Virus record (IMG/VR): IMGVR_UViG_2541047123_000042
Span: 1-35,222 of that record
DNA from: a virus
Taxonomy: Duplodnaviria; Heunggongvirae; Uroviricota; Caudoviricetes
DNA: 35,222 bases
Strand: one strand, 5' to 3'
Position numbers: made by a program. Position 1 is the stretch's first letter. Every line of letters starts with the position of its first letter. This document shows positions 1 to 3,000 of this stretch, piece after piece.

Positions 1-3000
1 ATGTTAAAGATAATACCCGGTGCAACAGGATACTTTAATAAAACACTCAATTCAAATCAATTCGATAATGAAGATGCAATCAAAGGTAAAGTAAATAGTA
101 TATATGGTAAATCTATTGATTATTCAACGATGCGTCATCGGGATATAATTATTGCAAAAATAGATTTATTTATTCAAAGAATCACTCATAATTTATGGAC
201 TGCACGTGAAAAAAATGTGACGTTAATTAAGCAAATAAACGATCTCAAAATGTGTGTCAATGAGTATATTGGAGATTGTACTGATGAGGAATTAAACGAT
301 CGTGAATTTATTGCATCAGTTGTTGACAGGGCTATTTTTCATTTCGCGATTAATAGTATATGTAATCCCGAGGATAATAAAGATGCGACACTCATAGAAC
401 GATGTACTTTTGATGTAGAAACCAAGAATGGTCTTCCCTCCACGGTTCAGCTATTTTATGAGGAATCTAAAGATAATGAACCTTTAGCGAATATACATTT
501 GCAAGCAATAGGTTCTGGTTTCTTAACGTTTGTTAATGCCTGCCAGGAACATGATGACAACAGCTTAAAATTATTTGCTTCGCTGTTAATTTCCCTTTCA
601 TATTCTAGTGTCTACTCAGATTTTGCAGGAAGAGTGAATATTAATGAATATAATGATAACTACCTGAAAGCTCAGTTTGAAGAATTATCTCAACGTGATA
701 TGAAGAAGTACCTGGGAGAGATGAAGCGTCTGGCAGATGGGGGAGAAATGAATTTTGATGGCTATCTGGATAAGATGTCACATCTGGTGAATGAAGGAAC
801 GCTCGCCCCTGATATTTTAAGCAAAATGCGAGATGCTGCACCGAAATTAATTGACTTTGCTAAGTCGTTTGACCCAAACTCAAAGGAAAAGATTAAAATA
901 TATACAGGCACTTCTAAATTAATTTATGATTTATTCGGGGTTAAATCGGAGAAATAATATGTGAAGTTCTTCGATGGTATGAAAGGTATTACATAAAAGA
1001 ACCCAATGTTTATTGGGTTCTTTTTTTCTCTATCAGTGCTATTAGCAGGGAGAGATATCACCGGAGTTTAATGTGTGATTTTTATTTATCGTCGAATCTG
1101 TATTGTTTATCATTGCTTTTCACAACGCTAACATCTAATAAGATTAGATATTCACTTCGTGAGAGCTTCATGCCTTGAGAGGATCTCAATTTTCTTTTGC
1201 AATGAGACAGGCGCTTCCTGTTGTTATGGTATAGTACCCCGTTATTGAGCCTCCTGAACAGTGATGCTGAATAACATAACCACATGATATATCGATAAAA
1301 TAATCTCTACATTTGAAAATGCACGGTAATTCTGAAATGCAAAAAATCAACCAAACCAGCGCAATGCCTGAAAAAACTGACGTTCACTGGAGTGGTCGGT
1401 TTAGCGTTGCACCAATGCTCGATAGGATGTACCGTTTTTGAAAAACAAATAGTTATATACTTTGTGGGAGCCTATTGGGAACCCGGCGTTTTCATTTCAA
1501 GGTGTAATCCATACGCGGCTTAAGAATGAGATATAATGCGACTTTTAGTGTTCCGCTTGAGAGGCCATGATGCTTACCCTGGACGAGATAGGTCAATCAG
1601 TACGTAACAATATCCAGTTGATTATTGATCATGTCGGCTTACCTCTTGCTGTTGGTCCGCTCAGTGATGATGATTACAAGATTCTGTGTGGTGGCTATGG
1701 TGAGCTTGAATGGGACTATGCGTTAAGTACCTATGGCAACTCCAGAGAAAAGTATGAGTTCTGCATAAAACTTGTTCAGCAAGGTCGGGTTCAGGGAATA
1801 CCATCAGGAGCAGCAATTTGTGTTTATGGGGTTGAAGAAAACATCTTTCGTATCCATATGATCGAAAGGTTTTCTAGAGAAGATGAATCTCACCCATTGA
1901 AAGGGCGCATGGTTTTACTCACTCTTATGAGTGCTTTTATATTTTGTAAAGCTGTTGAATGTAAAGTTGTCCACATTGTAGAGCCAGTACCAGAACTGGT
2001 GCAGTATTACGAGTCTTTTGGTTTCCGCATGGAACAGTGCGGTTATGTGATGTCGGCAGTCATTGATGAGCTGCAGGATATCTTTCTTAAATTTGCTCAG
2101 TAGGTATAGACGAGAAGGGTCTACAAATTGTAGGATACCCGTCCAGATTACCTTAAAGGTACATCTATGGCAGTCGTTTTGTGCTTAAACTACTAAGAAA
2201 CGATGTCACCAATCGACATGATCGATTGGCATAAGTTAGCGAAACAAGCTAGCTTTAAAGAAAGGGTTAGAGACGCCTTTACTGTCTCGGGAGTTTTCTA
2301 TGAAAGATCAAAAAGCAACCAAGCCACAGGTTAAGTTCGACACAATGAAAGCATTCGCAGGTATGGGTGCTGCTGTTGAAGTTCTGATGAAGGCTGCTCC
2401 TAATGCGTTCACTCACGCTACTGTCTCTGGTAAAGAGCAGCAGGGTAAGCTTCGTCGTCGCAAAGCAGCATGATCATAGCTGGTGCTTTTTGAAAACCCG
2501 CCTTCAGGCGGGTTTTTTCTTTAGTGATGTTCTTTGTCCTTCTGTTTGACTGTTCTGACCTGTTCCCACTCGATACGTCCTTCTTCTCGCCTTTTGTCTA
2601 TGTATTCCGCAAGATCTTGAATATTGATGCAACGTTTTGCTTTTTGTGATGTGCCGATGCGATATGTTGGAACGGGCAACTTACAAGCGTTTGCTTTTGC
2701 TTCTGCCGTGGCTGGACTCATACCAAAGTACTTTTGGCTAACTGCTGAGAGTTCAATGTTTGGGGTATTGAATTCAGCCATCAGTAAAAACAAGGTGTTC
2801 ATAATTTTCTCCATCAAAACCGGCTGCACCCGGGAAAATCATAATTCTGTGCTGGTGGCAGGAATTAATTTCTGCCAGATAGCGGAAACATATTTTGCCT
2901 GATGACGGGCATCAGCCAGGGCGTTGTGCCGTTCGCCATCGAAAGGCATGTCCATTTTGGGGTCGAATCCGATGGAACGCCCAAGCGTAACGATCGTGCG

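Follow-up and report, generated by a model that had tools for sequence, protein, structure and literature searches.

A putative attL junction of a dusA-specific, mEp460-like prophage remnant of Escherichia coli O157:H7

dusA-integrated islands and related phages

Integrative elements that target the dusA gene were described by Farrugia et al. (2015, Nucleic Acids Res, PMC4482086), in which a dusA-associated tyrosine integrase carries out recombination between the phage attachment site (attP) and a site conserved at the dusA 5' end. The dusA 5' end of the resulting lysogen is derived from the island, and the original 5' end rejoins dusA upon excision (PMC4482086). Table S1 of the same work lists, as a 'phage remnant', an island of Escherichia coli O157H7 str. 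EC4115 (NC_011353.1, 5179273..5190127, 10855 bp). Here we analyzed a stretch of 35,222 nucleotides, positions 1 to 35,222 of IMG/VR virus record IMGVR_UViG_2541047123_000042 (hereafter, the window), which contains a short open reading frame (ORF) at 1319..1441 that starts as dusA and soon terminates. Comparison with known phage and host sequences indicates that 1319..1441 is almost certainly the left junction (attL) of a dusA-specific prophage, a decayed mEp460-like lambdoid element, as formed by integration into dusA.

The locus shares both its position and its junction with the islands described by Farrugia et al., including insertion at the 5' end of the gene, a 5' end supplied by the element, and a native 5' end orphaned at the far junction. 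The start coordinate of the EC4115 island in Table S1 maps to window position 1423, which is the exact point of divergence from the host gene, and the length of that island equals the spacing between the two copies of the att core in O157:H7 strain TW14359 (10,855 bp). Direct repeats of dusA islands are semiconserved and about 21-28 bp long (consensus about 21 bp); the window holds a single copy of the core, and TW14359 holds two. The features that characterize dusA islands are divided between the two sequences. The native 5' end, orphaned at the junction away from the integrase, is found in the window. The replacement 5' end that keeps dusA intact is found in TW14359, and the window has no intact dusA. 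The dusA-associated integrase located beside the dusA 5' end is likewise present in TW14359 and absent from the window; the assignment of the TW14359 enzyme to the dusA-associated integrase (DAI) family rests on the listing of the EC4115 island in Table S1. The window differs from the described islands in that its island is not intact: only the left 6 kb are present, followed by another prophage, and the integrase end is missing.

The closest described phage is mEp460 (NC_019716.1 / JQ182728.1), a complete linear lambdoid genome in which the DNA to the right of attP is 99.1-99.7% identical to window positions 1396..3191. To the right of position 1422 the two sequences differ at 12 positions in 1,700 nt (about 99% identity). 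They share the same first genes in the same order (phrog_4350, phrog_2741, a PrtN-family gene labelled 'excisionase', and an exonuclease gene), and the mEp460 attP carries a mimic of the dusA 5' end. However, mEp460 is a complete phage of 44.5 kb, whereas the O157 element is a remnant of 10.9 kb that lacks most of the early, lysis and morphogenesis genes and possesses nleG effector genes. A literature search on the Sakai and EDL933 element names SpLE5 and CP-933Y linked neither of them to dusA (yjbN), and we do not use these names.

The junction, the element and its boundary were already known, as the orphan is annotated as a partial gene by PGAP and the element was listed as a dusA-specific phage remnant in 2015. 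The present analysis fixes the left boundary of the O157:H7 dusA prophage remnant at window position 1422/1423 and explains the 40-codon pseudo-ORF, so its value lies mainly in correct annotation. That the DusA protein of O157:H7 strains carrying the remnant has a phage-derived N-terminus is likewise contained in the literature and in the RefSeq annotation.

The orphaned dusA 5' end and its att sites

The orphan ORF (1319..1441, plus strand) begins with ATG at 1319, ends with TGA at 1439..1441, and comprises 40 codons plus the stop. Its translation, MHGNSEMQKINQTSAMPEKTDVHWSGRFSVAPMLDRMYRF*, consists of native dusA codons 1-35 (1319..1423) followed by five phage-encoded codons (RMYRF). Residues 1-35 of K-12 DusA are 100% identical to this stretch (tblastn, E 1.4e-18), so the first-pass annotation was right both in recognizing the DusA N-terminus and in placing the ORF; the resemblance lies far beyond chance. 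The same tblastn search with K-12 DusA detected no other part of the protein in the 35-kb window. The alignment with a prophage-free E. coli that had been proposed in advance gave the expected picture at the DNA level: the K-12 sequence, from upstream of dusA into its 5' end, can be aligned to window positions 1200..1422 with two mismatches, which both lie 5' of the ATG, and the similarity stops at 1423, from which position the window and K-12 are unrelated. Hundreds of O157:H7 chromosomes match the segment 900..1700 at 100% identity, and the window is E. coli O157:H7 DNA. PGAP labels the equivalent ORF in O157:H7 genomes as a partial 'tRNA-dihydrouridine synthase, missing C-terminus' (a pseudogene in TW14359).

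The chromosomal flank on the left side of the junction is also that of the native gene. A DUF2713 (yjbM-like) gene occupies positions 1..957 on the plus strand (Pfam DUF2713, E 1.4e-143), and a gene with the same protein accession is located 5' of dusA in both TW14359 and another O157:H7 strain, TW14588. The native upstream region of dusA (1200..1318, plus strand), presumably including its promoter, is still joined to the orphan; it has two mismatches to K-12 and none to the unoccupied site of TW14588. Its function as a promoter is inferred, and a simple promoter scan identified no consensus sigma-70 promoter upstream of the orphan. In a terminator scan, the DUF2713 gene proved to be followed by a terminator-like hairpin (995..1024); the next such site, a strong hairpin that has a T-run, is located at 2492..2517. 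With no such site in between, transcription starting at the native dusA promoter may continue into the two leading phage genes (1570..2473) in the lysogen. The orphan peptide itself is assumed to be a functionless by-product.

By comparing four sequences, namely the unoccupied site of K-12 (attB), the integrase-proximal region of mEp460 (attP), the window (attL) and the integrase-dusA junction of O157:H7 TW14359 (attR), we observed a reciprocal exchange of arms. The window combines the left arm of attB, the core and the right arm of attP, and the TW14359 attR combines the left arm of attP, the core and the right arm of attB. The core is a 27-bp sequence, TCGGTTTAGCGTTGCACCAATGCTCGA, which lies at 1396..1422 on the plus strand of the window, within dusA codons 26-35, and is identical in attB, attL and attR. 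No identity between attL and attR extends past these 27 bp on either side, and strand exchange took place somewhere within them. The core had initially been expected at 1425..1441, which is slightly too far to the right, as these positions already belong to the phage arm. An exact core sequence occurs once in the window, at 1396, and twice in TW14359. With regard to other integration targets, there are no transfer RNA (tRNA) genes in the window, and its only Rfam matches (DicF and sok) are located far off in the second prophage.

A precise empty site was identified in O157:H7 strain TW14588 (NZ_CP111095.1, 3121323..3129445), in which the DUF2713 gene is followed by an intact native dusA and by pspG. 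This locus has no mismatches to window positions 1..1422 and one mismatch in 3500 nt to the TW14359 sequence downstream of the attR core; it would fit a lineage that has lost the remnant precisely or one that has never had it. Among the 5,426 complete genomes of E. coli, approximately 4,000 match window positions 1300..1560 up to 1422 and no further, the last matching base lying within a dusA annotated as intact. A match across the whole junction was obtained in 337 of the 5,426, including an O111:H2 strain. The proposal of a left boundary of a dusA-targeting integrative element is thus borne out by the four-way att alignment, by the TW14588 empty site, and by the listing in Table S1 of Farrugia et al.

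The intact dusA and the dusA-type integrase, which were expected at the far end of the element, are both absent from the window; other O157:H7 genomes contain the two of them, at a distance of 10.9 kb downstream. The TW14359 integrase is a tyrosine recombinase of 365 amino acids, the gene of which ends 88 bp upstream of dusA, and it is 98% identical to the mEp460 integrase. When used as a tblastn query against the window, it matched only a 23%-identical relic at 11478..11876, and the two integrases encoded in the window have a distant relationship to the dusA-type enzyme or none at all. The TW14359 DusA protein is full length (345 amino acids). Relative to K-12 DusA it has eight substitutions among its first 26 residues, each of them encoded upstream of the core, and one further substitution elsewhere (compared at positions 31275..32312 and 3670..4707 of the extracted TW14359 and K-12 loci, respectively). 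The phage-derived N-terminal substitutions are G3D, S5H, M7A, A15V, D21G, H23Y, S25N and G26S.

Taken together with the behaviour of described dusA islands, the junction is almost certainly accounted for by the following course of events. A lambdoid phage close to mEp460 would have used its tyrosine recombinase, a dusA-associated integrase, to join attP to the 27-bp site in chromosomal dusA. Since attP carries an imitation of the promoter-proximal dusA 5' end, integration would split dusA in such a way that the native upstream region and the first 104 nt of the gene remain on the left side, directly followed by phage DNA that supplies five more codons and a stop, and so form the orphan. On the right side, the body of dusA would acquire the phage-supplied 5' end, and full-length DusA would still be made. 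The prophage would later have decayed to the 10.9-kb remnant, which most O157:H7 strains now carry as a fixed element.

The fragment could in principle be the phage-borne mimic of dusA, that is, an attP arm, or else a dusA pseudogene that arose, without any mobile element, through an ordinary deletion. A dusA-like 5' segment does occur in such phages, and PGAP calls that segment a partial DusA as well. However, the copy in the window shows 100% identity to native dusA and to the DNA upstream of it and is continuous with the chromosomal DUF2713 gene, whereas the mimic located to the left of the core in attP has 14-16 differences from the native sequence in 77 nt. Moreover, the DNA after 1422 is the phage sequence that adjoins attP in mEp460, which a deletion would not produce. 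With the native identity, the four-way alignment and the divergence of the mimic all pointing the other way, these two possibilities are ruled out for practical purposes, and we give them next to no credence.

Two observations sit less comfortably with integration of a mEp460-like phage as the origin of the junction. There are 3 mismatches among the 27 positions when the attP core of mEp460 is compared with that of the host, and both O157 junctions carry the host bases; therefore, either the core of the ancestral phage was identical to that of the host or the mismatches were corrected later, and the exact ancestral attP and the point of exchange cannot be fixed. In addition, the window contains no second copy of the core, no remainder of dusA and no dusA-type integrase, and only sister genomes provide a record of the complete element.

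The join to a second prophage region

The far-end dusA and integrase are absent from the window because its sequence switches to a different prophage region within the interval 7028..7394. According to mismatch maps, window positions 1..7394 correspond to the TW14359 dusA locus except for three single-nucleotide polymorphisms at 5822, 5831 and 5839, and positions 7028..35222 correspond to TW14359 DNA at 1.72 Mb (99.84% identity over 28.4 kb). The crossover interval (plus strand) lies in a tail-fibre gene and comprises 367 bp shared without a mismatch by the dusA remnant and the second region, the first part of which we label Sp9-like; a switch at this place yields a hybrid tail-fibre protein. 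The two source loci are 3.4 Mb apart in TW14359. They have the same orientation in TW14359, EC4115 and SS17, and opposite orientations in a few complete genomes (FDAARGOS_293 and 61_150228).

The join was found in none of the 5,426 complete E. coli genomes, in which the best single place covers 78-83% of the join-spanning queries. The hybrid tail-fibre protein is on record for one contig only, AVQR01000016.1 of the draft assembly GCA_000461935.2, from which the window evidently derives and almost to the end of which it extends; a literature search for this assembly gave no hit. An exact look-up of five proteins (the hybrid, the predicted reciprocal hybrid, and both parents) in a collection of 15 billion proteins was uninformative, as all of them were absent and the hybrid recorded at NCBI was absent likewise. 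The repeated J/tail-fibre region of the window also contains private mosaic patches: positions 5822, 5831 and 5839 are of the Sp9 type within dusA-remnant sequence, and position 7425 is of the dusA-remnant type within Sp9-type sequence. No complete genome matches window positions 5700..6000 or 7380..7680 at 100%, and the unique flanks are almost identical to TW14359. Such patches fit a blended consensus in a mis-joined repeat and equally fit gene conversion. As the cause of the switch itself, gene conversion was rejected, because the Sp9/Sp10-type DNA fills the remaining 27.8 kb of the window with no return to the dusA remnant.

Two explanations of the join have to be weighed. We lean slightly towards a chimeric assembly, in which the assembler jumped between near-identical tail-fibre genes, so that the real orphan precedes an ordinary 10.9-kb remnant followed by the integrase and dusA. 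This explanation is favoured by the restriction of the join to a single draft contig, by the location of the switch in a tract of perfect identity, and by the mosaic patches beside near-TW14359 flanks, which resemble a blended repeat consensus. It is also favoured by the shared orientation of the loci in TW14359, EC4115 and SS17, since a simple exchange between them would result in a megabase deletion or duplication and not in an inversion. However, the contig passes through other repeats (ISEc8 and the lambdoid early genes) unbroken, which suggests long reads or finishing and makes a mis-join at 367 bp less likely; the record gives 'Samples with this contig' as 2; and the mosaic patches could as well be the result of real gene conversion.

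The other explanation, to which we assign somewhat less than an even chance, is a real large chromosomal rearrangement in the source strain, whereby the tail-fibre gene of the dusA remnant recombined homologously with that of the Sp9-like prophage, parting attL from the integrase, attR and dusA. Large inversions and displacements flanked by prophages are well documented in O157:H7, according to the passage of PMC8991562 that cites Iguchi et al. (2006), and the breakpoint in the window is clean and lies in a long homology tract. The opposite orientation of the loci in FDAARGOS_293 and 61_150228 makes an inversion geometrically possible in such backgrounds. On the other hand, the arrangement occurs in no complete genome, and it needs an earlier inversion and would give an asymmetric inversion of roughly 3 Mb. 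If the join is real, it represents the same kind of event as the rearrangements ascribed to Iguchi et al. in that passage, that is, recombination between near-identical lambdoid segments. It differs from them in that this particular pair of partners is not joined in any of the complete genomes analyzed, that the loci are mostly direct and not inverted repeats, and that an assembly artefact may be involved.

With rather more doubt than confidence, we consider that the join may be real and that the dusA remnant and the Sp9-like effector prophage of the source O157:H7 strain may have taken part in a rearrangement on the megabase scale that had not been recorded before, by which attL would have come to lie far from the integrase and attR. 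In that case, any residual integrase-mediated recombination between attL and attR would invert or delete a large segment of the chromosome instead of excising the 10.9-kb island. A real structural variant would be of modest interest for the genome plasticity and typing of O157:H7, and an assembly error would be worth flagging to users of the draft.

Gene content of the remnant and of the adjoining prophages

The left part of the dusA-integrated remnant occupies positions 1423..7394 and extends from the right arm of the attachment site (P') through the 5' part of the tail-fibre gene. Its genes were annotated by combining the TW14359 annotation with Pfam and PHROG matches. On the plus strand, the P' arm is followed by two genes of unknown function, phrog_4350 (1570..2103) and phrog_2741 (2300..2473). 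The PrtN-family gene (2521..2802) is encoded on the minus strand beyond the strong hairpin; its product, labelled excisionase in the mEp460 record, may be an excisionase or recombination directionality factor. Also located within the remnant are a truncated 3'-5' exonuclease gene, a broken methyltransferase gene, yfdR and a DUF2303 fragment. The plus-strand genes adjacent to the crossover are a fragment of J (tail tip; 5370..6092), lom (6160..6759) and the tail-fibre gene (6824..8128), of which the 5' part belongs to the dusA remnant. In TW14359, the complete remnant between the two cores contains the genes seen in the window, with the DUF2303 fragment fused to the J fragment, followed by lom, the tail-fibre genes, three nleG-family genes, dinI and the integrase.

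A related arrangement was observed in a record of strain AH02 deposited as 'plasmid unnamed3' (NZ_CP081704.1, circular, 43,680 bp), in which dinI, the integrase, the dusA 5' mimic, the core and the P' arm are contiguous. It further carries phrog_4350, the PrtN and exonuclease genes, and a type II restriction-modification pair, and PGAP calls its mimic a partial DusA. On this gene order, the supposed plasmid looks like the circular genome of a mEp460-like dusA-targeting phage with attP on the circle.

The remainder of the window (7395..35222) lies outside the dusA element and consists of the distal part of an Sp9-like effector prophage followed by the left half of an Sp10-like prophage. Both labels are our assumption, made from the contents of the Sakai prophages (nleA, nleH1-2, nleF and espM1). 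The Sp9-like part contains nleG, nleA, an integrase relic, nleH1-2, nleF, ISEc8, nleG and espM1. The integrase relic is a truncated tyrosine integrase gene on the minus strand (11412..12152), an ORF of 246 amino acids between nleA and nleH1-2 that is a frameshifted pseudogene in TW14359. To judge by its location, it may be what remains of a further integrative element that lay inside the Sp9-like effector region.

The Sp10-like part contains an integrase gene (23610..24740, minus strand), an exonuclease gene, DicF, a repressor gene and replication genes. The integrase, which is of the Arm type, is adjoined by a C-terminal fragment of OmpW on the plus strand (23439..23564; NLPVWYMDIDTTAKYKSGVTTVKDSVRLDPWVFMFSAGYRF*), the TW14359 counterpart of which is annotated by PGAP as a partial OmpW with the N-terminus missing. 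This arrangement suggests that the Sp10-like prophage integrates into the 3' end of ompW. Two known RNAs of this prophage match Rfam profiles above the gathering score, namely the small RNA DicF (28114..28165, minus strand, 76.7 bits) and the sok antitoxin RNA (34898..35072, plus strand, 111.7 bits), the latter adjoining a hokD-type gene.

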